A program made the translations under genes and the position numbers. The notes under the pieces were generated by a model, which saw only the letters and a list, made by a program, of their open reading frames with translations, did not search any database and had not been told where the DNA came from. A stretch of 64,000 nt of DNA from an uncultured Methanosarcinales archaeon (GTDB lineage Archaea > Nanobdellota > Nanobdellia > Woesearchaeales > JAGVZT01), in contig CAYUHF010000006.1 of the NCBI GenBank assembly GCA_964444505.1, forward strand, positions 600-64,599. Direction: 5' to 3'. Shown here in pieces: positions 8,767 through 41,540 of the stretch (position 1 is the stretch's first letter; each line of letters starts with the position of its first letter).

Positions 8767-8952
8767 TCAATATATCTTTGCTGCTACTTTTTTCTCTAGT
8801 TGCTCTACACGTCTTCTAAGAGCCAAAATCTCAGCATCCATGTTTTTCTGGTTCTGGTTAAGAAATACAATCCATTCAGTAAGATTCTTTTTCAACTTGT
8901 TCATGTCTTCCTTAACTTTTCCGAAACTATTTATCACATTTTGCTTAAACAT
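8767..8952 (-). CDS. small coiled-coil protein (61 aa)
   Basis: The internal Met of the 132-aa track ORF is preceded by GGGGTGG Shine-Dalgarno. Product: MFKQNVINSFGKVKEDMNKLKKNL...ILALRRRVEQLEKKVAAKIY. The upstream part of the track ORF is AT-rich promoter-like sequence. Confidence 0.5.
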   Translation of the reverse strand: MFKQNVINSFGKVKEDMNKLKKNLTEWIVFLNQNQKNMDAEILALRRRVEQLEKKVAAKIY

Positions 8953-13139: not shown

Positions 13140-13292
13140 TAAATCACCCCATTTATGATTTGATTATTCAATTTATAAATGTTTTTAGTTTGATCATGAA
13201 AGGCCAGGATTATGAAGCGGGACAACCTTTTAATAAAGCTTGAACAAAACAGAGCCAACATCAGCTAAAGCTGAGTTGACTTAGAAAATAAG

Positions 13293-13376
13293 CGCCGACG
13301 CCCGGATTTGAACCGGGAGATCCTTGCGGAAACTGGCTCTCAAGGCCAGCGCAGTGCCAGATTGTGCCACGTCGGC
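13293..13376 (-). tRNA. tRNA-Ser (anticodon UGA), class II with long variable arm
   Basis: Minus strand: acceptor GCCGACG/CGTCGGC, D stem GCA/TGC, anticodon stem CTGGC/GCCAG with loop CTTGAGA, long variable arm, T-arm CCCGG-TTCAAAT-CCGGG, discriminator G. No encoded CCA. Confidence 0.9.
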
Positions 13377-13518
13377 ATTAACTATTGGTATGCCCTCCCG
13401 TGGCGACCAGAAATGTGTTTTTGCATTTCGGTGTATGCCACGTCGGCATTAATGTAGGTATGCCCTCTCGTGGCGACCATAAACTGTTTTTGGGTTTATG
13501 AGCATGCCACGTCGGCAT
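13365..13518. repeat. 2.5-copy ~70-bp tandem structured repeat that reiterates the tRNA-Ser 5' end
   Basis: tgccacgtcggc (reverse complement of tRNA nt 1-12) occurs at 13365-13376, 13436-13447 and 13505-13516. An inverted partial copy, ggtatgccctc[c/t]cgtggcgacca, occurs at 13387-13409 and 13457-13479. Inner hairpins lie at 13410-13429 and 13478-13500. Confidence 0.8.
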
Positions 13519-19624: not shown

Positions 19625-20080
19625 CTAGTTTTCCATGTTGGTTAGAAATCCCTCTCTTTTCAAATCTTCCAAAACAAGAAAGTACTTCTTGTTTTTTATA
19701 TTGTATTTTGACTCGATCTTTTCAATAAAAGAGTCTACGTCACTCACTTCCCGAAATATTCCCTCGATAAGGAAGTCATAGCCGTTGCTTATTTTATGAA
19801 CTGAGTTTATCTGGGAATGTTTTACCAAAAATTCTGCTAGTTCATTCTTGCTTTCAATGTCTGTCTCAAGAAGTATCTTGGCCATTATCTCATATCCAAG
19901 TAGAGAAAAGTCAATAAGGCAGGTGTGTTTTCTAATGAGTCCTCCTTCGTGTCCCTTCATCCTTTCATATATTGTTGTGACAGGTATTTTTGTCTGGCGA
20001 CTGATTTTTGTTAGAGATTTTCGGCCATCCTCCCTTAAATGCTTTAAAATTTTCACATCCTTTTGTTTTATCTTGTCCAT
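19625..20080 (-). CDS. Lrp/AsnC-family transcriptional regulator
   Basis: DVKILKHLREDGRKSLTKISRQTKIPVTTIYERMK; same architecture as 19097-19549. Confidence 0.8.
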   Translation of the reverse strand: MDKIKQKDVKILKHLREDGRKSLTKISRQTKIPVTTIYERMKGHEGGLIRKHTCLIDFSLLGYEIMAKILLETDIESKNELAEFLVKHSQINSVHKISNGYDFLIEGIFREVSDVDSFIEKIESKYNIKNKKYFLVLEDLKREGFLTNMEN

Positions 20081-20147
20081 TTTTCATCCTCCCACAGGTT
20101 TAGTTTCTGATTAAAGTTTTTTTGTTATATATGTTCTTTATGGGTTG

Positions 20148-20198
20148 TTTCTGAATGTTTCAGATATTTTCTGAAACAACATATATTTTCTGAAACAT
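20148..20198. promoter_or_regulatory. cluster of TTCTGAA repeats (candidate Lrp operator) in the divergent promoter
   Basis: Perfect 15-bp direct repeat atattttctgaaaca at 20164-20178 and 20183-20197. Inverted pair tttctgaa (20148-20155) / tttcaga (20158-20164). An extra gtttctga at 20103-20110. Confidence 0.45.
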
Positions 20199-20227
20199 TT
20201 AAATATGAGAATCCCATTTTAAGAGAT

Positions 20228-21799
20228 ATGAATGAAATCGAGTACAAAATACTTAATCTTTTCAAAGAATTTCCAAATGAGGAAATGTCAACTTTTAAGG
20301 TTGTTGAACATACTTTTCCGATAAAATCAGAAAAAATTAAACAAAGAGTTGACGGAACTGATTCTGCAGAGAAAAAATCAGCCAAGAAACTTAAAGCAAA
20401 ACTGCACAAGAGGGTTCTCTATTATCTAAACAAACTTGTTGATGAAGATATTCTTGAACTACGAAGAGAGGGTCATCGAGGCGAGAAGTTTTTTGGCCTT
20501 GCTCTTGATAATGGTGAAAGATTCATTATTGATAAGTACAAGAAAAGAGTTGTCATTGAAAAACCTGTTGTTCCTGCTGTTCCAGTTGAAGGATATGAAC
20601 AGAAAGGTTTTATTCACAGGTTCAGTCATGACAACTGGGTCGACAGGTTGAATGCAATGGTGGTTGAATCTTCTATGCTCACATCAGTTGAGAATTTTCA
20701 TAAACTAATTATTGACAGCTTCAGCTATGTTAATGATGTTATAGGACTAAATGATTTTGAGATATTTATTCAAAATAATTCAACAGAAAATGTTAGAGAA
20801 TTTCTTTTAGAGCTTGATGAACAATGTTCTGATTATGGAAAGTCCATAACTTGCATTATTGATGCAACTAATCTTGGCAAGGCACAGGAAAAGATAGTTG
20901 ATATTCTTGATAATTACTCAAATATTTCTTTTGTATTTGATGTGAGAGCAAAGGAATTTAGGAAAAACGAGGACTTCTTCAAAAAAGTAATTGACATAAT
21001 TTCTTCTGAAAAAGGAATGCTCTACATTAAAAACCAGGACCTGCATGAAGCACCTTATATTATTGGGAGCGCTGGCCCATATACATTTGAGCCAAGTGAA
21101 TGGGTAAGATACAGGAAAGAACATGATGATTCACTGTGTATTGCTTGTTCTCAATGTTCTGTTACTGTTGACTTCTCTAAGTTTTGGGACCAGTATGGCA
21201 TTGCAAATGAGTTTAGGACAATGCTTATGGCAACTGTAAGGGCTCTTCTCACTGCAAACAGCCTCCAGAGAAGAAAGAGTGGAGAGCTTTTCAGGGAGCT
21301 TACTTACAAGGTTCCCCATTTTATGAATTACAGCAGAAGTTATATAAGATTTTGGAACTATGGCTGGAAAGAGCCTGGAGTAGATCATGAAAGCATGCAT
21401 GATTTGCTCAAAAACCTTCGTGATGAAGTTAACAATTTCTGTTCTTCGCAAGAGACAATTTACTTAAGCTGCGGTATGCCTACAAGATTCAAAGTTTCTT
21501 TTTCATGCCCTTTCAGGGAACATGAGAGTGATTTGAGTAAAGCAAAATTCACACGTCTCAGAATAAGCAGCCACAAAGAACTCCACTCATCTGAGATAAG
21601 AAATATTATGCTATACAAGGAGAAATTGTTTGAACTCTTTGCAGGTGGGGACAGGTTGAGATTCATGAGAGTTGGAATTGTTCACCCAGAGGAAGTTATA
21701 AGAGAGTTGAATACTATACTCACTGGATACAAGCTTCCATTTTTTTGCTATGATTTCAAGGAAAGAAACAAGGAGATAAAACTAACTGAGTTTATATGA
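20228..21799 (+). CDS. hypothetical 523-aa protein with N-terminal winged-helix-like domain
   Basis: N-terminus EYKILNLFKEFPNEEMSTFKVVEHTF...VLYYLNKLVDEDILELRREG looks wHTH-like; the rest has no recognisable motif. Stop overlaps the next start (ATGA). Confidence 0.5.
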   Translation: MNEIEYKILNLFKEFPNEEMSTFKVVEHTFPIKSEKIKQRVDGTDSAEKKSAKKLKAKLHKRVLYYLNKLVDEDILELRREGHRGEKFFGLALDNGERFIIDKYKKRVVIEKPVVPAVPVEGYEQKGFIHRFSHDNWVDRLNAMVVESSMLTSVENFHKLIIDSFSYVNDVIGLNDFEIFIQNNSTENVREFLLELDEQCSDYGKSITCIIDATNLGKAQEKIVDILDNYSNISFVFDVRAKEFRKNEDFFKKVIDIISSEKGMLYIKNQDLHEAPYIIGSAGPYTFEPSEWVRYRKEHDDSLCIACSQCSVTVDFSKFWDQYGIANEFRTMLMATVRALLTANSLQRRKSGELFRELTYKVPHFMNYSRSYIRFWNYGWKEPGVDHESMHDLLKNLRDEVNNFCSSQETIYLSCGMPTRFKVSFSCPFREHESDLSKAKFTRLRISSHKELHSSEIRNIMLYKEKLFELFAGGDRLRFMRVGIVHPEEVIRELNTILTGYKLPFFCYDFKERNKEIKLTEFI

Positions 21800-22440
21800 T
21801 AAAACAAACTTCTGCTTTTGAAGCGTGGAAAGAGTCACTAAGAGTTGTATATGAAGAGGGAAAGGATTTTGAAGATGAGAGAGGTAAAATCTGCAGAGAA
21901 GTGTTGAATCTTTTTACTGAGATAGAAAACCCTGAAAAAGATATCAAGAAACCTATAACAACTCTAAATAGTTTTCAAAAGTGGATTTATCCGCCTCTTG
22001 AAGAACTCCACAATATTGTTCTAAGAAGTGAGCCGTCCCCTGGACACTTATACCTTTACGGACCAAGAATATTTGATTACAAAGGTCTTGACCAGATAAA
22101 TGATTTTCTGATACCTCTCCTGAAAAAGAACAAGAACAGCAGAAGGGGTATAGTGATGCTGTGGGATCCCACAAGAGATTCTAATATCCATAACAAGATG
22201 GTTCCGGGCTGGATTACAATTGACTTTAAGCTCAGAAACAACAAGCTCAATATAATGTCTTATATTAGAAGCAATGATCTTTGGTTTGGCTGGCCTGCTT
22301 CACTTTATCAGAGTTTTGTTTTACAGGAATATGTGGCAGACAAGGTGAACGCAAAGATTGGCAGATTATGTACTTTTTCCGGGTCAGCCCATATTTTCAG
22401 GTATCAGTTCAAGTACATTAAGAAAATTATCAAGATTTAA
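21796..22440 (+). CDS. thymidylate-synthase-like (ThyA superfamily) protein lacking the catalytic Cys
   Basis: Collinear with E. coli ThyA: [11 protein letters not shown] ~ [34 protein letters not shown] ~ [27 protein letters not shown] ~ GDTHLY. However VPGW replaces APCH. Confidence 0.7.
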   Translation: [214 protein letters not shown]

Positions 22441-25972: not shown

Positions 25973-26479
25973 ATGTCTGATATGGATGATATTAAAAAAC
26001 TGGATCCTTATGACAGGGTTGACAGGCTAAAAAAGTTAAAAAAGGAAAGAGAAAAAGAGATGGAAGAGGCTTCAAAACTTATTGATGATGCTGTTAAGGA
26101 GATTGAGTCCCTTGAAGAGCTAAAGGAAATCCCTATTCCTCAGATAAAGGCTGTTGATATTGAATCTTTGTTTACTCCTGAAGAAAAGGAGGTTTTCAAG
26201 GCCAAGAGGTTTGCTGAGGAACAGAATCTGGAAGAGATGATTCCTCAGGATTATAATCCTGATTACGATAGCCTTTCTCCTGAGGAGCAGGCAGAGATAC
26301 TTACTGGAGCTTATAATACAATACAGGAGTTATCAGAGGCTGAATATTTGTCTTCTTCTGAACAGGAAAGACTTGAATCCTACAGGACTTTGTCAGATGA
26401 GCTTTATGACTCGGGCTGGGAGCCAGAAGAAGATGAAAAGAAGATGCTGCAGGCTGAGAGATTAATGTTTGGTGGTTAG
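25973..26479 (+). CDS. hypothetical 168-aa highly acidic coiled-coil protein
   Basis: Starts 1 nt after the upstream stop; about 35% D/E; no motif. Confidence 0.55.
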   Translation: MSDMDDIKKLDPYDRVDRLKKLKKEREKEMEEASKLIDDAVKEIESLEELKEIPIPQIKAVDIESLFTPEEKEVFKAKRFAEEQNLEEMIPQDYNPDYDSLSPEEQAEILTGAYNTIQELSEAEYLSSSEQERLESYRTLSDELYDSGWEPEEDEKKMLQAERLMFGG

Positions 26480-26480
26480 T

Positions 26481-28361
26481 ATGGTGGTTTTTGATATTCC
26501 GCATTACAGCAGCTCACTTGAGAGAGATGAGGTTGTCAATATGGATGACAAGCCTTTAAGAAAAGTTGAGCTTGGAAATATTGGTATTAGTGCCAATCCT
26601 ACAACTGACCAGCTTCAGCAGCTTAAAGCAAGGATTTTTCAGGGTGCTTCAAGGGTTGAGCTTGGTTTTTCTGGTAAGGGCAAGGGTAGTATGCAGGGAA
26701 GGCAGACTACTCCTGAAATGTACGGCAAGCACCACAGAGAGGATATCAGGCAGCTTGCTGAGATAAATGAGGTTAAGCTTACTACTCACGCTTCTTATTC
26801 TGCTGGCCCCATGTCTGGTCTTGTACAGGGAAGGTTTGATCCTAATGCAAGGGAGCAGGTTCTGCATGAGATCCAGAGGGCTATTGATTTTGCTGCTGAT
26901 ACTGCAAGGGGCGGACCAGTTGTTGTTCATTCTGGTGCTTTTCCCAGAAATATTTATGAAAGTTACAGGGATGAGGGTTTTCGTGGATTTGAGGAGGAAG
27001 ATGAAAAGGGTGTTATGTATCTTGTGGATGAAGATACTGGTAAGTTGATTACTGATGTTAAGAAAAATGAAGAAGTGATATGGCCAAAATGGAAAACAGA
27101 TGAGAATAAGGAATATGTTACGAATGGAGATGGCCAGCTTGAGCCGGTTTTTGATCCTGAGACTGGTGAGTTTGAGACTCAAAAAGCTGGTTGGCAGGAG
27201 TTCAAGAAGTATGCTGACTGGTACAACAAGAATCATCCAGGTGATGAGATTACTCCTGCACAGGCTTATTACAGGGCTACTCTTGATGCTAACAGACAGT
27301 ATTCTTTGGGATGGGCGCATCAGTATGCAGAACAATATGAAGAGATGAAAGAAAACCTGAAGAAATACGAAAAAGCTTATGAAACTTACAAGGAGATTGA
27401 GAAAAATATTCCTGAAGATGAGATGTGGAAGATCAAAAAGCAGTTCAAACAGATTGACAGACCCGACATTATACCTCCTGAGGTTGAGCGTCCTACAGAG
27501 TATCTGGAAAAAAGAATAAAGAGTATGAAACAGCAGCTGAGGGCTTCAAAAGAGATGTCCCTTTCCTCTTTCCAAAGAGCTGCTCAGGCTAAAGACCAGG
27601 CTGACAAGGCGGTTCCCATTGAAAACTACGGTATTGAACAGTCGGCAACAACTATTGCAAGGGCAGCTGAGTTTGCATATGAAAAATCAAGGGAGCTTGA
27701 AAAGCACGGTAAATTAAAACAGCCTATTACTGTTTCTGTCGAAAATATTGAGCCTGAGATGTATGGTGCTCACCCTCAGGAATTAAAGAGGTTGATACTT
27801 GAGGGCAGGAAGAAGTTTGTTGAAAGATATGGGCAGAGGTATGGCGAGGAAAAGGCAAAAGAGCTTGCCAAGCAGCATATCAAGGCGACCTGGGATATTG
27901 GGCATGCTTACATGTGGAGAAAGTATTTTGAGGGAGATCCTGACAAGAGTTTTGAGGAGAATACAAAAAACTTTAACAAATGGTTATTTAATCATATTGA
28001 TGACCTCAATAAAGAGGAGATTATTGATCACGTGCATATTTCTGATAATTTTGGTTACAATGATGAGCATGTAACACCTGGCCAGGGTATTATTCCAATA
28101 AAGGAATTTGTGGACAAGATGAGAGAGGCAGGTATAAAGGATGTCATTGTTGAGCCGGCTCACCAGGACTACAAGGCAATGCTTGGCGGATGGAGGGATT
28201 TTGGTGCTCCAATATATGGTTCTGCTCCGCCTGCAACTGGGAGCAGTTGGTCTGATATTCAGTTCTCATATTTTGGCCAGACAAGGACTCCATACTTTAT
28301 TTTTGGGGATTATTCTCCAAGCAGGGACTTTACGTTGTGGACACAGGTACCTCTTGAATAG
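26481..28361 (+). CDS. xylose-isomerase-like/AP-endonuclease-2 (Endonuclease IV-like) TIM-barrel protein with ~250-aa internal insertion
   Basis: ATG at 26481 lies 1 nt after the upstream stop, with GGTGG Shine-Dalgarno. Motifs in Nfo order: THASY, VVVHSG, SVENIEP, WDIGHAYMW, VHISDN...NDEH..PGQGIIP, VIVEP. A charged helical insert sits between VHSG and ENI. Confidence 0.65.
   Translation: MVVFDIPHYSSSLERDEVVNMDDKPLRKVELGNIGISANPTTDQLQQLKARIFQGASRVELGFSGKGKGSMQGRQTTPEMYGKHHREDIRQLAEINEVKLTTHASYSAGPMSGLVQGRFDPNAREQVLHEIQRAIDFAADTARGGPVVVHSGAFPRNIYESYRDEGFRGFEEEDEKGVMYLVDEDTGKLITDVKKNEEVIWPKWKTDENKEYVTNGDGQLEPVFDPETGEFETQKAGWQEFKKYADWYNKNHPGDEITPAQAYYRATLDANRQYSLGWAHQYAEQYEEMKENLKKYEKAYETYKEIEKNIPEDEMWKIKKQFKQIDRPDIIPPEVERPTEYLEKRIKSMKQQLRASKEMSLSSFQRAAQAKDQADKAVPIENYGIEQSATTIARAAEFAYEKSRELEKHGKLKQPITVSVENIEPEMYGAHPQELKRLILEGRKKFVERYGQRYGEEKAKELAKQHIKATWDIGHAYMWRKYFEGDPDKSFEENTKNFNKWLFNHIDDLNKEEIIDHVHISDNFGYNDEHVTPGQGIIPIKEFVDKMREAGIKDVIVEPAHQDYKAMLGGWRDFGAPIYGSAPPATGSSWSDIQFSYFGQTRTPYFIFGDYSPSRDFTLWTQVPLE
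28294..28361 (+). repeat. left copy of 68-bp direct repeat (equals the last 22 codons plus stop of the TIM-barrel gene)
   Basis: 61/68 identical to 32443-32510; perfect cores 28308-28336 and 28338-28352. Confidence 0.9.
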
Positions 28362-28457
28362 GAGAGATAGAGTTATTCATGACATACTTTACAAAGCCTT
28401 CATCATAAAAACCCCGTGTCTGTATTTGCATTCCCATTTTGTTAATTCTTAAGATTG

Positions 28458-28466
28458 TTTTTTTTT
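28458..28466 (+). terminator. oligo-T tract (T9) about 100 nt downstream of the TIM-barrel gene stop
   Basis: gattgtttttttttgag; archaeal terminators are oligo-T runs. Confidence 0.35.
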
Positions 28467-28519
28467 GAGTGCTTTTTCAGATAGTCCCGGGGGAAGATAT
28501 AATCTGCAGGGAAAACCAA

Positions 28520-28828
28520 TCATTGGGAATATTTCTCCAATTTAACTCTTCTTGCATCATATCCGAGAATTTTCTTGTCTGCAAATTCCCTGATTCTTCC
28601 GATGCCATATTCCTGCTGCACAAGGTTATATACTGAGTTCCAGATGTAGTGCTCATCAGGTTTGCATACTGGACAGGGGATAAGACCAAGACTGAAAATT
28701 TCTCTTAGACCTTGTTCTCCAGCTCCAAGTATTATCTCTGATAATCCTGTAGGTTCTCTTCTGCGTGCAGAACAGGTAGTGAGTCCGAAAAGACCTCTAC
28801 TGAGTCGTGCAGACCAGATATCAGCATA
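28520..28828 (-). pseudogene. start-less ORF remnant (102 codons) inside the islet
   Basis: Open frame ...WSARLSRGLFGLTTCSARRREPTGLSEIILGAGEQGLREIFSLGLIPCPVCKPDEHYIWNSVYNLVQQEYGIGRIREFADKKILGYDARRVKLEKYSQ* has no ATG. A 31-codon ATG-initiated frame (from 28827) overlaps it at -1/+1. Track ORF 28477-28689 is a third frame of the same DNA. Confidence 0.25.
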
Positions 28829-28883
28829 TCAGGCTATCTCGAGCAGTGTCTTTTCTTCCCCTTTGTCTGTGATGTGTAGTATC

Positions 28884-31301
28884 TCATTTGTGCGATGAAG
28901 CGTAGAGTTCCCTTTTAACTTTTAATCTCATTGCACGGCGTGATTCATACCATAAGAGTCTTGGCTCGTTCTCAAAGACAATGATCTGGTCAAAAGAATC
29001 TTTGTTTAAAGCAGGAAAAAGGGTTGTTTTTGTACCCCTGTTCCTGATCCTTCCGGATTTTTTCACATCCGTTGATGAGACTCGGGTAAAACATGGATGC
29101 ATGCTCCCGAACCTGAACCTGTTGCCGTTTCCCTGCCATGGTTCTGCAGCTTCACCCGAAAGGTGGTAGTGGCCGCAGTCAACCAATGCAGAATCCATAG
29201 GGCCATAGGCAAGTGCTGTCCTGCCCGGTGTTTTCTGCCACTTTGGATCATGGACTATTGTATTTCTAAGTGGCCCCAAATCCTCTGCCCGGAGGTAAAA
29301 GGTTACGGCATTTGAACGAGCGTCCCGTTCGTCAAACACAACCCTGTCTGCAAGGTTTTCTCCAACAAGTCCTTTCTGAACCACATACATCAGTATTTCA
29401 TGGGGGTTTATTCCCGAGCCTCTCAATGAAAGAAAAGCGTGATTTGATCCTATAAATGTTGAAATTATTTCAAGCTGAGATTTTTTTTCTAATTCAACTA
29501 ATTGTTCTATGTAATAATCTGCATCCATCTGCTGGAAGTTGCCTATGTTTTCCCATGCTCCCCTTAGTTTTCTTGCAAGTATTCTTGAAACGAATTCCAC
29601 CCTGTCCTCGATTGTTTCAATAGGTTTTGATAGCTCTCCAATTTCTTGTGAGTAATCTAATGCGGACTCTCTTCTGTATTCTGCTCCTGCTCCAGTCCAT
29701 CCTGCAGAGTTGCTTTCAATGTCATCACCGACTGTTTTCAGCATTGCAGGAACAATTGGTCTGTCCAGAAATGTCCTGTTTTCTTTCCATTTCCTTAGTC
29801 TCCTTTCCTTTGCACCATCAACAAGCGCGATATCAGTTGATGGACAAAACAGATGCATATCTGAGTGTCCTTCTTCTTCATACCATCTTTCAGGTATAGT
29901 AATCCCTTTTGTGGCCGCATCATATGCTGTTAATTCTCTTCCTACTCTTCCTTCTTCATCAATATGGAATCCAAAGAGTGCAGATATGGCTCCCTTACCT
30001 AGTCTTTTGATTGCATAATGGGAGCGGCTTCCTACTGGTTTTCTTCCTGAAAGTCTTTCAGGTTCTTTTCCTCTGACAAATCTTGCTGCTTTATCCAGAT
30101 CATGATATACAGGCAGAACGCACACATATATGCTTTCAGGGTATGAATCCAGTGGCTGGAACCACAATCCCTCATATTCTCCATTTAATTCTGCATTTGA
30201 AGGCGATGTGTCGATTCTCATGAAATCATATCTCCCCTGATGTCCTTCAACAATAAGTAAAATGTCTTTTTCATGAAGTTCCTTTGTTTTTGTGTGTATA
30301 TCTTCTGAAAGACGCTTTGCTCTGTTGACTATTGGTGAGTCATACATACGGGCGTTTTCATTCACAATAATATTATTTCCATTCACTTCTATCTCTGCTT
30401 CTCCTATCAAAAATTCAATGTCATGTTTTTGCAGTATCTCTGCATATTTCTCCTTCATGAACCTAAACCCTTCGCTTACAATCATCTGGTGCACAGGACT
30501 CTCTTTCCTTGGCCTGAAGTATTCCAGCTCTTCCTCTGAAACATTAATTTCTTTTCTCAGCTCTCTAAAACTCCTGTTAAGATTATCAAGCTCTGATTCG
30601 CAATCTCTGATTTCCTGTTTTAATGAATTAATTTTTTCATATTCTGTTTCTTCGGCCAAATCCCGCATCTCCTCCCTAAAATCACGTTTTTCCCTGTATT
30701 TTTTTCTTATTCTCGACTGGAAGAAATCTGCTCTTGCTTCAATGTGTTTAAGTCTTCCCTTGAGTTCTCTTCGGTGTTTCAGGGCAAGATAGTGTATGAT
30801 TCTGTTTGTTGAGAATCCGTCATCAGTTGACCAATGGTAATACAGTTTTGCATTGGGAAGAGCCTGTCTTAGTTCACTAAACCTTTTCTCTGCAATCTCA
30901 AATTCACGCCCCATCAGATTCTGCAGCGGGTCATTTAATGAAGGTCCTGTTTTCAATTGGTCCCGGACCTTTTCCTTAGTCATCCAGAAACTCACAAGCT
31001 CAGGCAGTTTGTATTCCGGCCTGTCTATTCTAGTTATTGCCGCAGAAAGCCAGACTGCATCTGGTTGAACCTGGCTTAGGTAGTGTATAGTGTTTATCCA
31101 GTTCCCCTGATTGAAAAGCTTGGAGTCAAAAAGCACCTGGTCCATAAAATAAACAGAGCAGGGATTGTTTTTGGGCTGGTAACTAGGTTCTACTGTGATA
31201 ACCTCCTCACCGTCAATGACATCTTGAACAATTGCATGGCCTACAATTTCTTCAAGTCCCCTCTCTACTGGCAAATAGGTCTGTATAAGTCTGTCTATCA
31301 T
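28884..31301 (-). CDS. 805-aa orphan protein: N-terminal domain, central charged coiled coil, C-terminal calcineurin-like metallophosphoesterase-type motifs
   Basis: Ordered motifs GHSDMH (DxH), VGDDIESN (GDxxD/E), GSNHAF (GNH[D/E]-like), DCGHYH (GHxH). Coiled-coil segment ...EETEYEKINSLKQEIRDCESELDNLNRSFRELRKEI... . By-eye assignment only. Confidence 0.6.
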   Translation of the reverse strand: MIDRLIQTYLPVERGLEEIVGHAIVQDVIDGEEVITVEPSYQPKNNPCSVYFMDQVLFDSKLFNQGNWINTIHYLSQVQPDAVWLSAAITRIDRPEYKLPELVSFWMTKEKVRDQLKTGPSLNDPLQNLMGREFEIAEKRFSELRQALPNAKLYYHWSTDDGFSTNRIIHYLALKHRRELKGRLKHIEARADFFQSRIRKKYREKRDFREEMRDLAEETEYEKINSLKQEIRDCESELDNLNRSFRELRKEINVSEEELEYFRPRKESPVHQMIVSEGFRFMKEKYAEILQKHDIEFLIGEAEIEVNGNNIIVNENARMYDSPIVNRAKRLSEDIHTKTKELHEKDILLIVEGHQGRYDFMRIDTSPSNAELNGEYEGLWFQPLDSYPESIYVCVLPVYHDLDKAARFVRGKEPERLSGRKPVGSRSHYAIKRLGKGAISALFGFHIDEEGRVGRELTAYDAATKGITIPERWYEEEGHSDMHLFCPSTDIALVDGAKERRLRKWKENRTFLDRPIVPAMLKTVGDDIESNSAGWTGAGAEYRRESALDYSQEIGELSKPIETIEDRVEFVSRILARKLRGAWENIGNFQQMDADYYIEQLVELEKKSQLEIISTFIGSNHAFLSLRGSGINPHEILMYVVQKGLVGENLADRVVFDERDARSNAVTFYLRAEDLGPLRNTIVHDPKWQKTPGRTALAYGPMDSALVDCGHYHLSGEAAEPWQGNGNRFRFGSMHPCFTRVSSTDVKKSGRIRNRGTKTTLFPALNKDSFDQIIVFENEPRLLWYESRRAMRLKVKRELYASSHK

Positions 31302-31437
31302 TTTGCTTCAGAAAAGTCAGGGGGAAAGTTTCCAATCTTACTGGAATACCGCTACGACTGTCCAGTTGGATTCTGACAAAAAGAGATTTGGATTCGTCTT
31401 CCCCCCTTCATTCTGAGATTTATTGAATACTATTTGC

Positions 31438-31467
31438 ATATATAATTTGTCAATATAGATTATATAT
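31438..31467. promoter_or_regulatory. 9-bp inverted repeat in the divergent promoter of the islet genes
   Basis: ATATATAAT-N12-ATTATATAT, 66 nt upstream of the AbrB-PhoU ATG. AT-only, so modest significance. Confidence 0.25.
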
Positions 31468-31532
31468 CTAAAGAAAAAACTATATGAATAACATAATAAA
31501 TACATAAATATTAGTAGTGATTAGCCAACTAT

Positions 31533-32429
31533 ATGGAGCAGAGAAAACTACAACTGGTTGCGGGTTCTACATACACAATATCACTACCAAAACAGTGGGT
31601 TATAAGAAACAATCTAAAAGTGAGTGACCACTTGACAATTTATGAGAAGAGCGGGAAGAGTCTAATAGTCTCTGTTGAGCACATCAAGGATGAAAACACT
31701 GAGATCAAGATAAATGTTGACAAGTACAGTTCCATTGAAGAGATTATTTTTTCCGTTTACTACATGGGCGTCGAAAGGATTGATCTCTGGTCTGAGAAAT
31801 CAATAATACCTGAGAAGAAAAAAATAATACGGAGGGCTGTCAGAAAGCTGAGTGGTGTTGAGATTATTTTTGAGAGCAAGAAAATGATCACATTGAATCT
31901 TCTTTTAGATAAGTCAAAGCTGAACATTAACCAGATTCTTTACAGGATTTCACTTATCATTCTCCAGTCTATTGACAGCATAGATAATGGTGATGAGATT
32001 GAAGCTAATGAGAAGGAGATCGACAGGCTTTTTCACCTGAGCAAGGCAATTTTATCTCTTTCTATGAGAAATCCGGGGATACTTGAGAGTTCTGGTGTTG
32101 ACAATCTTCTTCTGATTCCCTCGTATAACGGGATTGCAAAGAAATTTGAAAAGATTCATGATGATCTTTATAGGCTTGTAAATTATTACCAAAAAAGTGA
32201 CATTGGAGAGATAATAAAATACACAAGAGAGGTTACAGAAACTACGAGGGATTTCATACTGAAGCCAGGGAAACCTGTTGACATAGAGTCAGAGGGTCTT
32301 GAGGAGAAGGCTGATACTTTCGGCAATTCTGTTGCAATACTTCTAAGAGATCTTGTAACTCACACAAGAGATCTTGAGAAGCATCTTGTGCAGTTCTCCT
32401 TTTACAGGAGTATTGAGAAGGATAAATAA
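31533..32429 (+). CDS. AbrB/SpoVT-domain plus PhoU-like-domain transcriptional regulator (archaeal phosphate-uptake-regulator family)
   Basis: N-terminus LQLVAGSTYTISLPKQWVIRNNLKVSDHLTIYEKSGKSLIV (AbrB fold). C-terminal helical repeats with ..NEKEIDRLFHLSKAIL.. (PhoU-like). Confidence 0.7.
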   Translation: MEQRKLQLVAGSTYTISLPKQWVIRNNLKVSDHLTIYEKSGKSLIVSVEHIKDENTEIKINVDKYSSIEEIIFSVYYMGVERIDLWSEKSIIPEKKKIIRRAVRKLSGVEIIFESKKMITLNLLLDKSKLNINQILYRISLIILQSIDSIDNGDEIEANEKEIDRLFHLSKAILSLSMRNPGILESSGVDNLLLIPSYNGIAKKFEKIHDDLYRLVNYYQKSDIGEIIKYTREVTETTRDFILKPGKPVDIESEGLEEKADTFGNSVAILLRDLVTHTRDLEKHLVQFSFYRSIEKDK

Positions 32430-32442
32430 TTCCAGCCTTATA

Positions 32443-32510
32443 ACTTTGTGTTTGGCGATTATTCTCCAAGCAGGGACTTTACGTTATGGACACAGGTACC
32501 TTTGGAGTAG
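32443..32510 (+). repeat. right (orphan) copy of the 68-bp direct repeat
   Basis: Reads NFVFGDYSPSRDFTLWTQVPLE* with no upstream gene body. Lies 13 nt after, and in frame with, the stop of the AbrB-PhoU gene. Confidence 0.9.
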
Positions 32511-32598
32511 ATCTAAAAGAAGTTAGAGATTATTTTTGTTGAGTTTTAAGGAGCGAGTGATACATGTTAGAGTATTGACTGAACAAAACCATTCTTGT

Positions 32599-35500
32599 TC
32601 AAGTTGTACAAGAAGGCCTACTTGAATAGATTTGATCTTCTTCACATCCTGAATCACAATCTTTTGGTTCTCCCCATTCTCCTCCTTCTTCACACTTCAT
32701 GTATTTATAGAATTGTCCTTCTGTATAGCAATAGTATTCTCCAACTTCAATCTTTTCTGCATTTTCAATACAATTACTCTGGTCACATTTTGTGAAATCA
32801 TCTTTCCATTCTGTGTTGCTACAATACCAGCATGTTTCACCATCCCAAAAATGCTCTCCGTTTCCTAGTGTTGATGATCGGAGGATTTCTTTTGTCAATC
32901 TATCATTATTATCAACATGACATACTCTATTACAGCCCCCCTCATATTTTTCAGGTTCTGCTCCTTCTTCTGTCATAACACACAGAAGACATTCCGTTTC
33001 GCCTTCGAAAGGACCAAAGTAAATATAGCCAGGTGCATACTCTCCCTCACATAGACAATGACTAGGTTCATCATAATTGGGTGTAAGTGTTCCATCTTTA
33101 CATTCATAACAAAGATTTTGACCCCCGTATGTATACTTCTGTTGGCAGTAATGATCTGGACATCCCTCTGGAAAATCAGTCCTAAAGCTATTATCCTGAC
33201 AAAAGTAGCACTGACCGTCATGGAATACACCTTGTCCACTATCTACCCAGCCATCATCTCCCAAATCCTCAGGTAGATTCTCATCAAGTACAGAGCAGCC
33301 TTCACAAAATGATTTATCTACAATTTTCCATTGGCTGTCACCATTTTTTTGATGTTCTTTGCATTCAACACATTTACCACGTGATGTTCTGACTGTTTTG
33401 CCTGGCCTCGTGTTACCACAATAGCATCTAGAATTCGCTGTTTCACGCCAACCATCAGGGTTTGCTGCACTTACTCCAACACATTCATGGCATGTGTTAC
33501 CAGCAAAATAATAATCTCCTTTTTCTCCATATCGTTCTGCAATAGGACCTTCAACACAGATATCCTGAGACTGCTGATTGCGACTTATGCATAATTTACC
33601 CTCTGTTGTTGTTATATGCTTACATTCACCTATACCACAAGGATCCTCTGAACAAGCAGTTTCAACATCCTGAAAACTATTATAATCCAAACAGGTAGTT
33701 ACTTGGTCACATTCATTTTGTCCTACATCCGGTTGTTCATAATCACAAGCAGCAAAATTACTACATGTTGCTCCCTCATGGCACACCCCAGAACAGTCCT
33801 TACAGCTGATATAAGAACATGGATCATTAGGCTTATTCTCAACGCAGCATCCCCACATTTCTGTATTTTGATCGTTACATCTAATATCTTGGTCACAAGA
33901 TTTTGAAATCCAACCAACATGATAATCTTTAGTTTCGCAAACTTCTTCCCCCATATTATCATTACACCGATAACCACCTGGAACAGCAAGTATACAGCAA
34001 CCCTTTAAATCTACCTCATCAGCCTCTTCAGCTGTCACGCATCTTGCAATATCCCCTTCTTCTGCACAACCATACTCACATTCGGTATTTATAGGACTTA
34101 CTGGAGCCGGCCCTTCCCATCGGGTTATAAGAGTATCACCATCACAGGTCAAAATGACCTCTCCTTTTGTTGATGGATTGTTGCACAAAGACATATCAGC
34201 TCTTTTTGCTCCAGGAACAGGTTCGACGGCTACAGAGCACACAGTATCTTCTTCATTACACCAACACCGTTTGTTAATCTGCCCTTTACAGTGGCTAAGA
34301 TAATCAGATTGTATACCCATATCTTCCAAACTAGCCTTCAATCTATCATAATGCGCATATATTTGATTTCTACAGCAATATGAATTGGTGCCATCTGCTT
34401 TTGGCTGATATTTTTCCCCACCGCATATGCAGCCCTCATTTGCAGTTGTCAAAACAGTTCCACAGTACTCTGTTCCCTGAAACATTCCTCCTGTTGTTGA
34501 AGCCAGTACTGTTCCTGAACCTGTTTCGTATTCCTCTGGATCATATGTTATGTGTTCACAGTAGTCTGCTCCCCTTTCAGCAGCCCATTGTCTGAAACTC
34601 ACTGAGCTAAAACTATCATATCCAACCTCAATCTCACAAAGACTTGTGTCCATAACATTTGTCCCTTCTTCTCGCATGTAGTCCCTGTACAAAGCAAGAC
34701 AGTTGAGTTCTCTTCCGTGAGCTGAATCAGGATCCCAAACAGCTCCAAGTTTCTCCTTTTTTGCATAGATCTCATTTATTCTCTTCTGCACTGTAGGTTC
34801 ACACTCATCAAAGAACTTAATGCCCACCCCACCAAATTCCATTTCTTTGCCTGCAAACATCTCAACATTCACTAAATTATTCAGATATACTTTTATCCTA
34901 TTTGTTCCTTGATTAAGAGCATTCATGATTTCCTCAGGCGTTTCTACAGGTACATCGTTGATCTTAAGAGCACAACTATCTGAACAGATTTCATTTGTAT
35001 TTGTTGGTCCATCTGCTTGTTGCGTATTACCTGCTCCCTGATCGACGAGATTACCTGTTACTGCTGAATTTGTTGGATTCATATCGTTAGTCGTAACCCA
35101 TCTAGATGAATCCGCACAAGAATCTCCGTTTTCTTTAAGTTCCAAAACAATTTCTGCATAACCTCCAAGAGTTATGTCTTCATCTGATACTGCTGAAGCT
35201 ATTGGGTTGCCTTCAATTATCTCATAGCCATATGTTTTCGGTGTTGCATAGAAAGCCATATTATTTCTAGGGCACTCCATTGTTTTCTCTCCATTACCAT
35301 CGCATTTGTCAACAATATTGTCAAAGGGTCCATTATGACTTGAACTCCCCACTATACAGCTTTCTGCATTTACTTCAACAATGTATTCTTCAGCTTCATC
35401 CTCACAGTCCTCTTCACAATTAGCTCCACGCCCACTCCAAAGACATGACTGGAGACAATTATAGTACTTTGCACCATCCATCTCTTTTTTCACCTTACAT

Positions 35501-36828
35501 CTTAGCTCAGCAAGGTTATCATTTATTCCATCACCAGACATTTCCCAATCTTCATATCTATCTTCTGCCTTTTTCTGGCACGCTTTAATGCATTTTTGCT
35601 TTTCTGCATTATCTAGATTTGTAATTTCAACACCATTGTGATAAAACTTTACATTATTTATTGTATTATCTGAATCATCATCATCATCCTCATCCCAATC
35701 TCTAAGTAAATCGTCACATACACTCACCAATTGCCCATTCATTAGATGAGCAACAGTATCTGCATTTCCTCTTGTAAGATCACAATTTTCTCCATCCATT
35801 GCCTCTGGTATCAAATGCATTCCGTCTACTTTGTTGTCCATCCAGTATTTTGACTCAACCGGCTCAATTGGATGCTTGAAAACTTCCTTTAAGTCAATTG
35901 TTACAGGTTCATCATTATATTGTCCACATGTTACCACTGCAATCATTGTGAAATGGTCGACAAGACATTCAAGTTTGTATGTCTGGGTCTGATCGTTTTT
36001 TGTGACAGAAACTGTCGGGTATGTTCTCCACACACCACTCTCTTGATCATAATAAGCACATTTCAAATCTTGGTATGGAAATCCTAATGGCTTATCCTCA
36101 TAATCAGATTCTATCTGAAGGTTAATTGGAGGGTCAAAAATTGCTCCGTCAGGTTTGCCTTCATAGACTACTGTTCCTATGACAACATCATTACTAAGTC
36201 CATCAAAACTTCTGTCGATAATCTTCACACTTAGTGGATCGGTTATGGTATTACCTAACTGGTCAGTTATTCTTGTACCCTGTGGAATCTCTATCTCAAC
36301 ATCATTATCAGAAGCAACAACTACCTGGCTTCTTGTGGTTCTCCCATTGGCATCAAAACTCATCTGCCTGCTCTGCTCCCTGTTAATAAAGTAATTAAAG
36401 TGCTCTAGCTTTGAGTTTGCCCCGTTCTTTTCAATGTTTATTGGATACTGCATGTCTACAAGCACCGACTGCTCTGTGATTGTTGCAACTACTATTGGGT
36501 CCTGTGCTCTTACTGTCATGCCTGTTTTCGAGAATATTTCAAAATCTATGCAATCTCCAATGTTGTTTTCAATATATGTTGAAAACATCTCTTCATTGCC
36601 GTCCAAAAGACCAAATATATCTATTGCTTCGCCAGTTGTTGTCTCAAGACAGCTCTGGACATATTCTTTTACAGCTTCTGATTTTGATTCAAACTCAGCA
36701 CTCTGATAAGTGCTTATTTCTGGATTTTCTGAGTCAAGATTTTTTAGAAAATATATGAATCCGAATGTTCCTATTAGGACAAGTAATAAAATAAAGAAAG
36801 CTGTAAGTAACTGACCCTTTTTTGACAT
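32599..36828 (-). CDS. giant (1409 aa) secreted/membrane-anchored cysteine-rich surface protein
   Basis: N-terminal TM/signal anchor (LLTAFFILLLVLIGTFGFIYFL). The C-terminal ~550 aa hold repeated G-x2-C-[YWHVL]-[EFYL]-C modules (CHECVG, CVECKEH, CYFCQDN, CYECKDG, CLLCV, CWYCSNT). Confidence 0.8.
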   Translation of the reverse strand: MSKKGQLLTAFFILLLVLIGTFGFIYFLKNLDSENPEISTYQSAEFESKSEAVKEYVQSCLETTTGEAIDIFGLLDGNEEMFSTYIENNIGDCIDFEIFSKTGMTVRAQDPIVVATITEQSVLVDMQYPINIEKNGANSKLEHFNYFINREQSRQMSFDANGRTTRSQVVVASDNDVEIEIPQGTRITDQLGNTITDPLSVKIIDRSFDGLSNDVVIGTVVYEGKPDGAIFDPPINLQIESDYEDKPLGFPYQDLKCAYYDQESGVWRTYPTVSVTKNDQTQTYKLECLVDHFTMIAVVTCGQYNDEPVTIDLKEVFKHPIEPVESKYWMDNKVDGMHLIPEAMDGENCDLTRGNADTVAHLMNGQLVSVCDDLLRDWDEDDDDDSDNTINNVKFYHNGVEITNLDNAEKQKCIKACQKKAEDRYEDWEMSGDGINDNLAELRCKVKKEMDGAKYYNCLQSCLWSGRGANCEEDCEDEAEEYIVEVNAESCIVGSSSHNGPFDNIVDKCDGNGEKTMECPRNNMAFYATPKTYGYEIIEGNPIASAVSDEDITLGGYAEIVLELKENGDSCADSSRWVTTNDMNPTNSAVTGNLVDQGAGNTQQADGPTNTNEICSDSCALKINDVPVETPEEIMNALNQGTNRIKVYLNNLVNVEMFAGKEMEFGGVGIKFFDECEPTVQKRINEIYAKKEKLGAVWDPDSAHGRELNCLALYRDYMREEGTNVMDTSLCEIEVGYDSFSSVSFRQWAAERGADYCEHITYDPEEYETGSGTVLASTTGGMFQGTEYCGTVLTTANEGCICGGEKYQPKADGTNSYCCRNQIYAHYDRLKASLEDMGIQSDYLSHCKGQINKRCWCNEEDTVCSVAVEPVPGAKRADMSLCNNPSTKGEVILTCDGDTLITRWEGPAPVSPINTECEYGCAEEGDIARCVTAEEADEVDLKGCCILAVPGGYRCNDNMGEEVCETKDYHVGWISKSCDQDIRCNDQNTEMWGCCVENKPNDPCSYISCKDCSGVCHEGATCSNFAACDYEQPDVGQNECDQVTTCLDYNSFQDVETACSEDPCGIGECKHITTTEGKLCISRNQQSQDICVEGPIAERYGEKGDYYFAGNTCHECVGVSAANPDGWRETANSRCYCGNTRPGKTVRTSRGKCVECKEHQKNGDSQWKIVDKSFCEGCSVLDENLPEDLGDDGWVDSGQGVFHDGQCYFCQDNSFRTDFPEGCPDHYCQQKYTYGGQNLCYECKDGTLTPNYDEPSHCLCEGEYAPGYIYFGPFEGETECLLCVMTEEGAEPEKYEGGCNRVCHVDNNDRLTKEILRSSTLGNGEHFWDGETCWYCSNTEWKDDFTKCDQSNCIENAEKIEVGEYYCYTEGQFYKYMKCEEGGEWGEPKDCDSGCEEDQIYSSRPSCTT

Positions 36829-39114: not shown

Positions 39115-40323
39115 CTACTCATACCTTAATGCATCTACTGGGTTCTTTTTTGCTGCTTGTATTGCCGGAAGAACACCTGAGATTGTTCCAACAAGGTATG
39201 CAAATACAAGACATCCTGCTACAAGATACCAGGGAAATATTGGTTTTAGTGCTGCATAGCCTGCGTTTGCTGCTATTGCCTCACCAACTTTTGCAACCCC
39301 ATATCCCAGAAGGACACCTATGGCACCACCAGCCAGTCCGAGAAGTCCTGCTTCTACAATAAATACAAGTCTTATATCTGAGTTTCTTGCTCCTATTGCC
39401 TTCATTATTCCTATCTCCTTTGTTCTCTCTAGAACTGAAGTGTACATTGTGTTTGTGATGTTGACTGATGCAACAACTACTGAGATTAGTGCTATCAAAA
39501 AAAGTACTCCATTTATGAGATTTATTATTGTGTTAAATGTTCCTATGACGTCACTGAAGGTCTGTACTGTGAATTCTTCCTGGCCTTCTTCCTGATCCTT
39601 GAAATCCCTGAGTTCTTCTTCAACTTTATCAGCAAGTTCACCAGGTACAACATCATCTTCTGCATTTATGATAACCCATGAATATTCTCCTGCTGATTCA
39701 GGATAAAGCAGTTCAAAACCATCAAAGGACAAATAAATATTTACATCATCTGCTGGATTTCCTACTTCTTCATAGAATCCGACCACTTCAAACTCAACAT
39801 CATTTATGATTACCTTGTCATTTAATCTCACTGGTCTTTCGAATGCCTTGTCCTCCAGAACATAATTATACCCCAGAACAACCTTATCAGTCTCATCTTC
39901 AAGTTTTCTGCCTTCATACATGTCAAGGGCAACAATATCTTCCAGCATTCCCATGTTCTCTTCTCTGACCGCCATAACGTATGCATAAGCTCGTTCATCA
40001 TCATGAACAATTTCTCCTATGCTCATGTATATTGGTGCTACTTCATCGACCCCGTTTATTTTGTCAATATGGTCTACATCTTTTTGAGAAAGTGAGAATG
40101 TTGAGTCAGTACCTGGTGCACCTATTCCTTTTGCCTGTACAATTAGTTTGTTTGTGCCTGCCTCTTCAGCAAGTGAGTTTACATAATTTTGTATTCCAAG
40201 TCCAAAACTTACCAGAGCAAAAACAGCCATTATTCCTATAAGGATGCTAAGAGATGTAAGCCAGCTTCTAAGTTTTCTGTTTACAAGGTTTTTCCAGGAA
40301 TAAGAAATTAAGCTCCATTTCAT
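39115..40323 (-). CDS. ABC transporter permease, MacB/FtsX family
   Basis: N-terminal TM helix, large periplasmic-type loop, then the FtsX core (RTKEIGIMKAIGARNSDIRLVFIVEAGLLGLAGG). Confidence 0.85.
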   Translation of the reverse strand: MKWSLISYSWKNLVNRKLRSWLTSLSILIGIMAVFALVSFGLGIQNYVNSLAEEAGTNKLIVQAKGIGAPGTDSTFSLSQKDVDHIDKINGVDEVAPIYMSIGEIVHDDERAYAYVMAVREENMGMLEDIVALDMYEGRKLEDETDKVVLGYNYVLEDKAFERPVRLNDKVIINDVEFEVVGFYEEVGNPADDVNIYLSFDGFELLYPESAGEYSWVIINAEDDVVPGELADKVEEELRDFKDQEEGQEEFTVQTFSDVIGTFNTIINLINGVLFLIALISVVVASVNITNTMYTSVLERTKEIGIMKAIGARNSDIRLVFIVEAGLLGLAGGAIGVLLGYGVAKVGEAIAANAGYAALKPIFPWYLVAGCLVFAYLVGTISGVLPAIQAAKKNPVDALRYE

Positions 40324-41540
40324 TTCTCATACCTCAATGCTTCAACTGGCTGCATTTTTGCTGCACTAAGTGCTGGGAGTACTCCTGCAAGAGTGCCTAC
40401 AATAAATGAGAACAGCAGTGCTCCGATTAGTACAAGCGGGTTAAAATCTGCCTGAATAATATCACTTCCAAGTGCAGCTCTTCCTGCAGCACTAGCTCCA
40501 ACTGCGATAAGAACACCTATGACAACTCCAACAATTCCACCAACCATACCCAGCATCCCTGATTCAATAAAGAATAACCTGAATATTGTTTCATTTCTTG
40601 CACCAATTGCCTTCATAATTCCTATCTGGTTTGTTCTCTCAAGAACTGCAGTGTACATTGTGTTCATTATTCCTATACCACCTACAACCAATGATATTCC
40701 GGCTATTATGTATATAAACAATTGTACAGCAAATAATGTGCTATTGAGGTTTTCTATTGCCTGCTGCGGACTTTGAACTGTAAAGTCTTCTTCACCTTTT
40801 TCCACATCTCTTTCTTTTCTCAATATTTTCTCGATTCTTTCCTGGGTATCATCCATCCTGCCTTCATCTGATACCTGCACTGCAATAATATCGATTTCAT
40901 CTTCATCAGCATCAAAATATTCAAGAAGAGAATCCTGATTTATGAAAACAGCTGAGTCGATGGTGAAGCTTCCTTTTGGTTCTGTAATCCCAATAACTTC
41001 AAATTCCATGTCATTGATTAGTACTTTTTCTCCAACCCTTATGGGTTTTCCCAGGTTTTCTTCTGATGCAACATCAGCTCCGAGAACAACTCCCTTTCTA
41101 TCAGCATCTCTCAGCAGCCTTCCCTGTGATACTTCAATATTTGTAATTCTTTCAAAAACTTTCCGGTTCTCATCTGGAACTGAAGTCAGAAAGATTAGGT
41201 CCTGCTCATCATTAAAAATCATGCTAGCTGTAGCAATGTATCTCGGGAAAACCGCCTCCACATTGGGTACATCGGCAATCGCATCAACCAAATCTGAAGT
41301 TAAGGGATCAACAACTCCTGTTCCTGGTGGTCCTGCTGTTATTCCTGCTGCCTGGACTGATAGAATGTCTGTTCCCAGGAATCCAAACTGAGATGATATT
41401 GCAGTACGTAGTCCTTCACCTAAACTTATAAGGGATACTATTGCAGCTATACCGATAAAAATCCCAATCATTGTAAGCCAGGATCTTGTTTTCCTGCTCC
41501 CAAGTGATTTGAAAACTAATACGATGTAATCCCTGATCAT
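40320..41540 (-). CDS. ABC transporter permease, MacB/FtsX family (paralog)
   Basis: RTNQIGIMKAIGARNETIFRLFFIESGMLGMVGG. Overlapping stop/start codons on both sides. Confidence 0.85.
   Translation of the reverse strand: MIRDYIVLVFKSLGSRKTRSWLTMIGIFIGIAAIVSLISLGEGLRTAISSQFGFLGTDILSVQAAGITAGPPGTGVVDPLTSDLVDAIADVPNVEAVFPRYIATASMIFNDEQDLIFLTSVPDENRKVFERITNIEVSQGRLLRDADRKGVVLGADVASEENLGKPIRVGEKVLINDMEFEVIGITEPKGSFTIDSAVFINQDSLLEYFDADEDEIDIIAVQVSDEGRMDDTQERIEKILRKERDVEKGEEDFTVQSPQQAIENLNSTLFAVQLFIYIIAGISLVVGGIGIMNTMYTAVLERTNQIGIMKAIGARNETIFRLFFIESGMLGMVGGIVGVVIGVLIAVGASAAGRAALGSDIIQADFNPLVLIGALLFSFIVGTLAGVLPALSAAKMQPVEALRYEK

Follow-up and report, generated by a model that had tools for sequence, protein, structure and literature searches.

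In Streptococcus thermophilus, att-flanked elements that lack an integrase and adjoin ICESt1 and ICESt3 at the fda 3' end can be mobilised in cis. Downstream of full-length rhs and cdiA toxin genes, orphan C-terminal modules accumulate after new DNA has been acquired. Lambdoid phage 21 integrates in the Escherichia coli gene icd, as does the prophage e14. The latter completes the gene and leaves the orphan fragment icdC at its far end, and the two ends differ mainly at synonymous positions (PMC13626634). Homology-facilitated illegitimate recombination has been described experimentally in naturally transformable bacteria, according to the text that cites this work (Meier and Wackernagel 2003, as cited in PMC6382021). 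Here, we describe a related arrangement in a DPANN (Woesearchaeota) archaeon, within a 64-kb stretch of contig CAYUHF010000006.1 (hereafter, the window). A 4.15-kb segment, the island, lies between two copies of a direct repeat that encodes the C-terminal end of a TIM-barrel protein, one copy being the end of the TIM-barrel gene (hereafter, TIM) and the other an orphan tail. Gene-end replacement with an orphan tail is known from e14 in icd; what is unusual here is that no recombinase is present and that the structure recurs with different cargos in DPANN archaea. We see about an even chance that foreign DNA carrying an orthologous gene end was acquired and was integrated without an element-encoded integrase.

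The locus resembles e14 in icd in its insertion at the 3' end of a conserved protein-coding gene, its replacement gene end and its orphan C-terminal fragment. However, e14 encodes an integrase and excises site-specifically after SOS induction, whereas the island contains two cellular-type genes and no recombinase. A preliminary description of the window had proposed an integrating element that brought its own version of the 3' end of its target; the layout, which matches that of e14, agrees with this proposal, whereas no sign of self-mobility was found. Like the elements adjoining ICESt1 and ICESt3, the locus is a small repeat-bounded island at a gene 3' end without recombination genes of its own, although those elements have the att sites of a co-resident family and arise by decay, while here the borders vary and no family was identified. 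The displaced 3' gene ends of rhs and cdiA loci likewise keep a piece of conserved upstream sequence; there, however, the ends are variable toxin tips with immunity genes, whereas here the encoded peptide is the same at both ends, which enclose the acquired genes. Integron cassettes also combine a one- or two-gene cargo, the lack of a recombinase and a fixed place of insertion, but they differ from the island, which has no attC-like hairpin and no adjoining IntI, and whose repeat is coding sequence of the neighbouring gene. Homology-facilitated illegitimate recombination, to the extent that the citing article describes it, would share with the island the integration of foreign DNA by a one-sided homologous anchor in a conserved gene joined to an illegitimate junction, a variable junction, the expectation of a donor-derived gene end and the lack of a dedicated recombinase. 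That process usually deletes recipient DNA, whereas here a join within the recipient tail would leave a duplication.

The repeat had been described as 68 bp long, 61 of 68 positions being identical and the starts lying 4149 bp apart, and this was confirmed by a repeat search of the window and by blastn (28294-28361 and 32443-32510). With the left copy as the query, the right copy was the only match in the window (E 1.3e-20). Read in codon register, the similarity extends upstream to 28288 and 32436, respectively, by two further codons (CCA TAC and CCT TAT), both of which differ synonymously. The full repeat in register thus spans 74 nucleotides (nt), with perfectly matched cores of 29 and 15 nt, and the right copy has one added codon (AAC) relative to the left. 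Translation of the left copy ends in PYFIFGDYSPSRDFTLWTQVPLE followed by a stop codon, which is the C-terminus of the TIM-barrel protein. The right copy reads FQPYNFVFGDYSPSRDFTLWTQVPLE between two stop codons, has no gene body attached, and starts four codons after the TAA stop of the AbrB-type cargo gene, in the same frame. Beyond the stop codon, and on the 5' side of the PY codons, the copies showed no significant similarity. An extension of the repeat into the end of the AbrB gene (a QFS motif) or beyond the stop codon was considered and rejected (p 0.18 and 0.03-0.18), although tblastn bridges these positions. The gene-tail repeat is the only one of its kind within the window.

The junctions were recovered independently of the deposited assembly. 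In a Logan assembly of run SRR15425350, two contigs matched the window at 100% identity (L194, window 26309-28476; L195, window 30656-35283) and together spanned both junctions, which are therefore real in the sample. The source is a metagenome, and the contig of a second case described below (L055) ends 47 nt after its orphan, as might be expected if an assembly artefact had joined two strains. However, given the independent contigs, and a longest exact match between the copies (29 nt) that is shorter than the usual assembly k-mers, such an artefact is hardly credible. The Logan contig that carries TIM ends at window position 28476, 115 nt inside the non-coding spacer of the island and beside a T9 run, perhaps because coverage is low or the assembly graph branches there.

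The two tails differ in the manner of coding sequences. Across 23 aligned codons, nine nucleotide differences amount to six synonymous codons and one Ile/Val replacement; the differences listed earlier for the shorter repeat (five synonymous, and two in one Ile/Val codon) were correct. About half of the synonymous sites differ (~7.5 of 14.3), compared with about 3% of the non-synonymous sites (1.5 of 54.7). When nine random substitutions were placed on the resident tail in a neutral simulation, the probability of at most one amino-acid change and no stop codon was about 5e-5; with only five neutral changes, placed on the orphan, it was 0.013. One conservative change and no stop codon among nine differences thus indicate that the copies served as working gene ends of separate lineages while they diverged. 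This upholds the earlier view that they diverged under coding selection and are not a fresh local duplication. The tail is among the most conserved parts of the protein, with W620 and the terminal E626 invariant or nearly so. The resident and orphan tails match at 58 of 65 nt, and the resident tail matches that of its ortholog in the relative L007, whose protein is 60% identical overall, at 55 of 65. Given the conservation of the tail, these values indicate that the source of the second tail was a distinct lineage rather than a recent copy.

The position of the cargo is derived in this genome, as neither cargo gene was found near TIM in any of about 170 other TIM loci, and TIM is intact despite the insertion. 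TIM is the last gene of a cluster whose order (Carb_kinase, a gene for a 509-amino-acid (aa) protein, a gene for a 168-aa protein, TIM) is kept in relatives, and a total of 263 homologs of its product were found, almost all of them in genomes of Woesearchaeota, Pacearchaeota or Nanoarchaeota. Gene order breaks directly after the TIM stop codon in every relative examined. A block of Lrp/AsnC, 523-aa and ThyA-like genes lies upstream of the cluster in the window (19625-22440) and downstream of TIM in the closest relatives (L006:5169-8029 and L007:16297-19166), and this switch identifies the 3' end of TIM as a recurrent synteny breakpoint. A breakpoint would suit a local event followed by drift, such as a long target-site-type duplication, replication template switching, or the decay of a tandem full-length paralog to its last remnant. 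The repeats in L055 and L067, the two parallel cases presented below, are also 94-98% identical, as a recent local duplication would give. From an identical start, however, an unselected orphan would gather mostly non-synonymous changes, contrary to the pattern observed (P 5e-5 for nine neutral changes and 0.013 for five). Furthermore, tblastn revealed no other TIM-like remnant in the window, which speaks against the tandem paralog that the preliminary description had named as a refuting case. We consider a local origin very improbable.

From the two tails and their surroundings, we infer a foreign donor, a native identity for the downstream tail and a recombination route. The donor would be another Woesearchaeon in which the cargo lay directly downstream of its own TIM gene. 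The conserved gene or cluster would have been the place of recombination between its DNA and the recipient, and the far end of that DNA would have joined the recipient within the recipient's own gene tail, at about 32436, giving the order donor tail, cargo, recipient tail. Because the incoming DNA would have carried its own gene end, TIM would have remained intact and one end would have been stranded 4.1 kb downstream as an untranslated orphan. That similarity stops at the stop codon would follow if donor and recipient had different downstream neighbours, and the 88-nt spacer behind the orphan (32511-32598) would then be the original downstream sequence of TIM. Integration by host recombination is most likely, with a recombinase acting in trans as the alternative. 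Two routes can be envisaged. The first would combine an illegitimate join with a homologous crossover located within the gene or upstream of it, as in homology-facilitated illegitimate recombination; the borders of similarity (left, the stop codon; right, 32436) are compatible with this route. In the second, a circular intermediate would enter by a single Campbell-type crossover inside the tail, as e14 does in icd by means of its own integrase (PMC13626634). This route would better fit an identity step seen in L055 and would require recombination on a 74-nt, 87%-identical target or a recombinase in trans.

The same structure was found in two other lineages through a census in which a profile of the TIM tail was searched against six-frame translations of 192 related loci. 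Of these loci, some of which are redundant, 174 carry TIM and 121 extend at least 2 kb downstream of it; self-blastn was additionally run over the 2.7 Mb. In L055 (Woesearchaeota MAG.250, JBLKOL010000030.1), TIM is followed by a single S-adenosylmethionine (SAM)-dependent methyltransferase gene and then by an orphan tail, the cargo gene being co-oriented and flanked by 41 nt and 40 nt. The repeat (7738-7925 and 8731-8918) comprises 188 nt, in register and ungapped, and the stop codons of the copies differ. Its distal 113 nt are 98% identical, with two synonymous differences; in its proximal 75 nt, identity falls to 64%, with numerous replacements and the loss of an invariant Trp in the orphan. 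This step in identity suggests a conversion or crossover boundary near 7812/8805. No close relatives of L055 were available in a search for an empty site. In L067 (JBFMFP010000028.1), a 47-nt repeat (94% identical; 1291-1337 and 4134-4180, 2.8 kb apart) corresponds to the final 16 codons of TIM's immediate upstream neighbour, the gene that occupies the 168-aa position. It brackets two AAA_14/DUF4143 ATPase genes, and its orphan lies just before TIM. In the window, L055 and L067 alike, similarity ends at the stop codon and the cargo contains no recombinase, and the three cargos are unrelated to one another. The repeat lengths (74, 188 and 47 nt) and the upstream borders differ, as expected if the events were homology-driven rather than site-specific. 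Candidate repeats in L180, L176, L073 and L188 do not represent the same structure.

Neither integration machinery nor a site structure for it was found in the island. No recombinase was detected in the cargo genes with Pfam, NCBIfam, PHROGs and PADLOC or, for the 805-aa cargo protein, with an additional PDB sequence search, an AlphaFold2 (AF2) model and a fold search. Neither a recombinase nor a transposase nor Cas1 was detected in the island or in the 15 kb on either side of it (Pfam, with the further libraries for the cargo). These hidden Markov model (HMM) scans bear out the earlier statement that the island encodes no integrase or transposase. Border-pairing or terminal inverted repeats were not found in the island. 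The repeats fold no more stably than shuffled sequences (z-scores -1.0 to +0.9), which gives no indication of an attC-like hairpin, and in a search for a dif-like site, the best 11-N(5-8)-11 palindrome in the tails paired at 6-8 of 11 positions, no better than in shuffled sequences. Among the hallmarks of a site-specific element, direct repeats with an identical core and a restored target gene are present, and an adjoining element-encoded integrase is absent. The defining features of an Xer/dif-exploiting element (IMEX), of an integron cassette, and of an insertion sequence, transposon or casposon were not found; the last of these readings fails because there is no such protein, there are no inverted repeats at the borders, and the repeat is 74 nt long and diverged. 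The sole tyrosine recombinase in the window (7289-8101, minus strand, 270 aa; Phage_integrase E 8e-41, with an N-terminal SAM-like domain) lies 20 kb from the island and corresponds in size and domain content to a housekeeping Xer-type protein.

The island could nevertheless be a site-specific integrative element that lost its integrase or never had one and was mobilised in trans, its attP mimicking the last ~24 codons of TIM. It would then be akin to the att-flanked elements without an integrase that occur beside integrative conjugative elements. The layout of e14 in icd, with an element-supplied gene end, a far orphan C-terminal fragment and synonymous differences (PMC13626634), is the same. 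The exact coincidence of the end of similarity with the stop codon in all three cases would be expected if selection kept only the coding part of attP, and the decayed proximal 75 nt and 98%-identical distal 113 nt in L055 would fit an untranslated P arm and a crossover region. A tyrosine recombinase is present in the genome (7289-8101), yet it looks like a housekeeping protein. Moreover, no integrase occurs in any of the three unrelated cargos, the length and upstream border of the repeat vary, and one case, L067, uses the tail of another gene. The repeats show neither an inverted-repeat or dif-like core nor a hairpin. The same cargo pair is found in L005 without a flanking repeat or a TIM tail, and in L086 without a TIM tail or a terminal overlap. 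Finally, IMG/VR viral contigs gave no match to the gene tail or to the 805-aa family; the AbrB gene was not searched there. Mobilisation in trans is thus unlikely in our judgement.

Several observations also weigh against the acquisition of a donor gene end by host recombination. Neither a donor lineage nor an empty-site allele nor a circular form came to light; the most similar homolog of the 805-aa protein is 37% identical, and the closest homologs of the TIM-barrel protein share 59-61% identity with it and are followed by different genes. The tail peptide, searched as a degenerate DNA pattern, had no match in genome or viral collections, and look-ups of exact proteins gave no contigs other than ones identical to the window. 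At 29 nt, the longest stretch of perfect identity between the copies is marginal for homologous recombination inside the tail, and no mosaic structure was seen along TIM in comparisons with four relatives. Simple divergence between donor and recipient does not suffice for the identity step in L055, which would need gene conversion or an element-borne decayed arm. Since all census loci were fetched through TIM, the recurrence does not mark this cluster as a hotspot relative to other conserved genes. Homology-facilitated illegitimate recombination, as far as the citing text goes, has been demonstrated in transformable bacteria and not in archaea (cited in PMC6382021).

Tail-derived peptides can evidently persist as stand-alone genes. 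In five of the 174 loci, which belong to distant lineages, an open reading frame (ORF) of ~40-45 aa starts at or overlaps the TIM stop codon. The consensus of these conserved mini-ORFs (W..IE..Y.G.T...Y.TGL..D..WS.VPLE, followed by a stop codon) is a recognisable paralog of the TIM tail, and they are closer to one another than to TIM tails. Each may be a translationally coupled microprotein that mimics the tail. By analogy, the right copy of the repeat could function as a micro-gene that mimics the tail, or could extend the AbrB gene by read-through, and be kept by selection rather than be a scar; the cargo would then simply separate TIM from a small paralog of it. Such selection would itself produce coding-type conservation. 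The orphan shares the frame of the AbrB stop codon, contains an internal GTG (32448) and has an A/T-rich, TATA-like stretch ~22 nt upstream, as judged by eye. However, in-frame placement has a chance of 1 in 3, and the orphan has neither an ATG nor the N-terminal half of the mini-ORFs. It fits the profile of the TIM tail (E 4.7e-9) and not that of the mini-ORFs (E 1.4). Divergence from TIM tails is strong among the mini-ORFs, but the orphan keeps 22 of 23 residues of the resident tail. The closest relatives examined, L006, L007 and L008, have no such ORF, and a 40-aa ORF that follows TIM in L193 is unrelated to the tail. We regard a selected function of the orphan as quite unlikely.

Base composition does not mark the island as foreign. 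The preliminary description had based such a sign on the G+C content of 60-nt lines (57% and 55% in the island, against 33% outside), counts that were numerically right and proved unrepresentative. The island has a G+C content of 39.9%, compared with 37.4% for the window, which places it at the 92nd percentile of equal-sized windows, and TIM itself has 42.5%. Its tetranucleotide distance lies at the 72nd percentile. The G+C contents at third codon positions (GC3) of the cargo genes, 0.37 and 0.41, fall within the spread of the 53 genes measured, the AbrB gene having the highest. All three measures are within the range of the window, and this host-like composition is consistent with a related donor.

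The 805-aa cargo protein had been called an orphan; an exhaustive profile search instead returned a family of 37 cluster representatives. By sequence, the protein is a member of a small metallophosphoesterase family. Its motifs (D481-x-H483, G525-D526, N620-H621, H684 and G710-H711-x-H713) follow the order DxH, GD, GNH(D/E), H, GHxH of calcineurin-like metallophosphoesterases. Residues D481, H483, G525, D526, N620 and H621 are invariant in the family alignment, and H684, G710, H711 and H713 are invariant in the six closest members and nearly so across all 32. One family member matches PF00149 (Metallophos; E 3e-4). The AF2 model has a predicted local distance difference test (pLDDT) score of 88, and its fold matches, although weak (E about 3e-3), are all metallophosphoesterases: purple acid phosphatase, the small subunit of PolD (DP1), the B subunit of Pol alpha, and LpxH. 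A third protein search, seeded with the family alignment, returned only the query.

The two cargo genes form a conserved divergent pair that is also present in L005 (L005:7539-12727) and L086 (L086:46-3516). In L005, a 908-aa relative of the 805-aa protein (37% identity) adjoins a homolog of the AbrB-type protein (27% identity, E 2e-24), and this copy of the pair has neither flanking repeats nor a TIM tail. L086, a 3.6-kb contig with the same pair, was considered as a circular form and showed no terminal overlap and no TIM tail. More distant members of the 805-aa family lie among housekeeping genes, without an AbrB gene. For the PhoU-like part that the preliminary description had assigned to the 298-aa regulator, only a sub-threshold match was obtained, in the L005 homolog (E 4.7e-4). 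It had also noted a decayed ORF, possibly a recombinase remnant, between TIM and the 805-aa gene; this spacer contains only short ORFs and matched no protein or RNA family, a 70-aa ORF being scanned against Pfam alone. The features of the locus are collected in Table 1.

Table 1. Features of the island, its flanks and the tail-derived mini-ORFs (window coordinates unless a locus is named)
Feature	Coordinates	Strand	Description
TIM-barrel gene (target)	26481..28361	+	626 aa, xylose-isomerase-like; Pfam AP_endonuc_2 E 5.6e-17
Left repeat copy	28288..28361	+	Last 23 codons and stop of the TIM-barrel gene; translated, resident
Non-coding spacer, TIM stop to stop of 805-aa gene	28362..28883	.	522 nt; ORFs of at most 78 aa only
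Cargo gene 1, 805 aa	28884..31301	-	N-terminal domain, long coiled coil, C-terminal calcineurin-like metallophosphoesterase domain
Divergent intergenic region, presumed promoters of both cargo genes	31302..31532	.	From gene layout; also in L005 and L086
Cargo gene 2, 298-aa AbrB/SpoVT-type DNA-binding protein	31533..32429	+	PF04014 E 2.4e-7
Right repeat copy	32436..32510	+	Orphan tail, 24 codons and stop; tail HMM E 2e-9
Spacer to convergent 1409-aa gene	32511..32598	.	88 nt
Convergent 1409-aa gene	32599..36828	-	Right flank, not cargo
Mini-ORF	L009:11961-12095
Mini-ORF	L157:3076-3213
Mini-ORF	L167:11809-11955
Mini-ORF	L038:6679-6885
Mini-ORF	L044:11823-12155

Little is understood of how DPANN archaea, which are small and depend on hosts, gain genes, and few of their integrated elements have been described. 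Within one conserved gene cluster, three independent insertions carry three unrelated cargos and no recombinase. A gene-end duplication with almost only synonymous differences offers a clean, datable and searchable scar of horizontal acquisition. If such scars occur genome-wide, conserved gene ends would serve as landing pads for foreign DNA without dedicated integrases, which would account in part for the breaks in gene order at precisely these genes. A bolder and rather unlikely extension is that DPANN archaea acquire accessory genes through integrase-free cassettes whose attachment sequence is the conserved 3' coding end of a housekeeping gene. Were this true, host recombination between the tails could excise a circle of cargo and one tail that re-enters relatives with the same gene end. 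Such passive, self-propagating gene flow would explain the three scars in one cluster and possibly the birth of tail-derived micro-genes. The cargo itself points to an uncharacterised unit in which an AbrB-type regulator and a large metallophosphoesterase move together.

The window is otherwise ordinary chromosome, with genes for EF-1 alpha, RIO kinases, TruB/Cbf5, SecDF, NMD3 and phosphoribosyl pyrophosphate (PRPP) synthetase. The 1409-aa protein encoded on the right flank had no family match in Pfam, NCBIfam, PHROGs or PADLOC. Two tandem homologs of it lie upstream of the TIM cluster in L007 (L007:3-1304 and 1363-4167), on the opposite side compared with the window. Another long repeat in the window (39383-39453 and 40594-40664; 71 nt, 90% identical) falls within two tandem FtsX/MacB-type permease paralogs (39115-40323 and 40320-41540) and reflects ordinary paralogy. 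A 34-nt direct repeat (13416-13449 and 13485-13518; 82% identical, 69 nt apart) lies beside a tRNA-Ser gene (13292-13376, minus strand). Among the census loci, L188 contains a perfect 41-nt repeat (L188:20483-20523 and 21489-21529) with a hairpin of 10-bp stem (GGTGACTACA...TGTAGTCACC); of its two copies, one extends over a gene end and one is intergenic, and the repeat resembles a dispersed terminator-like or miniature repeat element. In L048, several copies of a unit of ~63-137 nt, with 97-100% identity, lie within 1.3 kb (L048:5873-7125).

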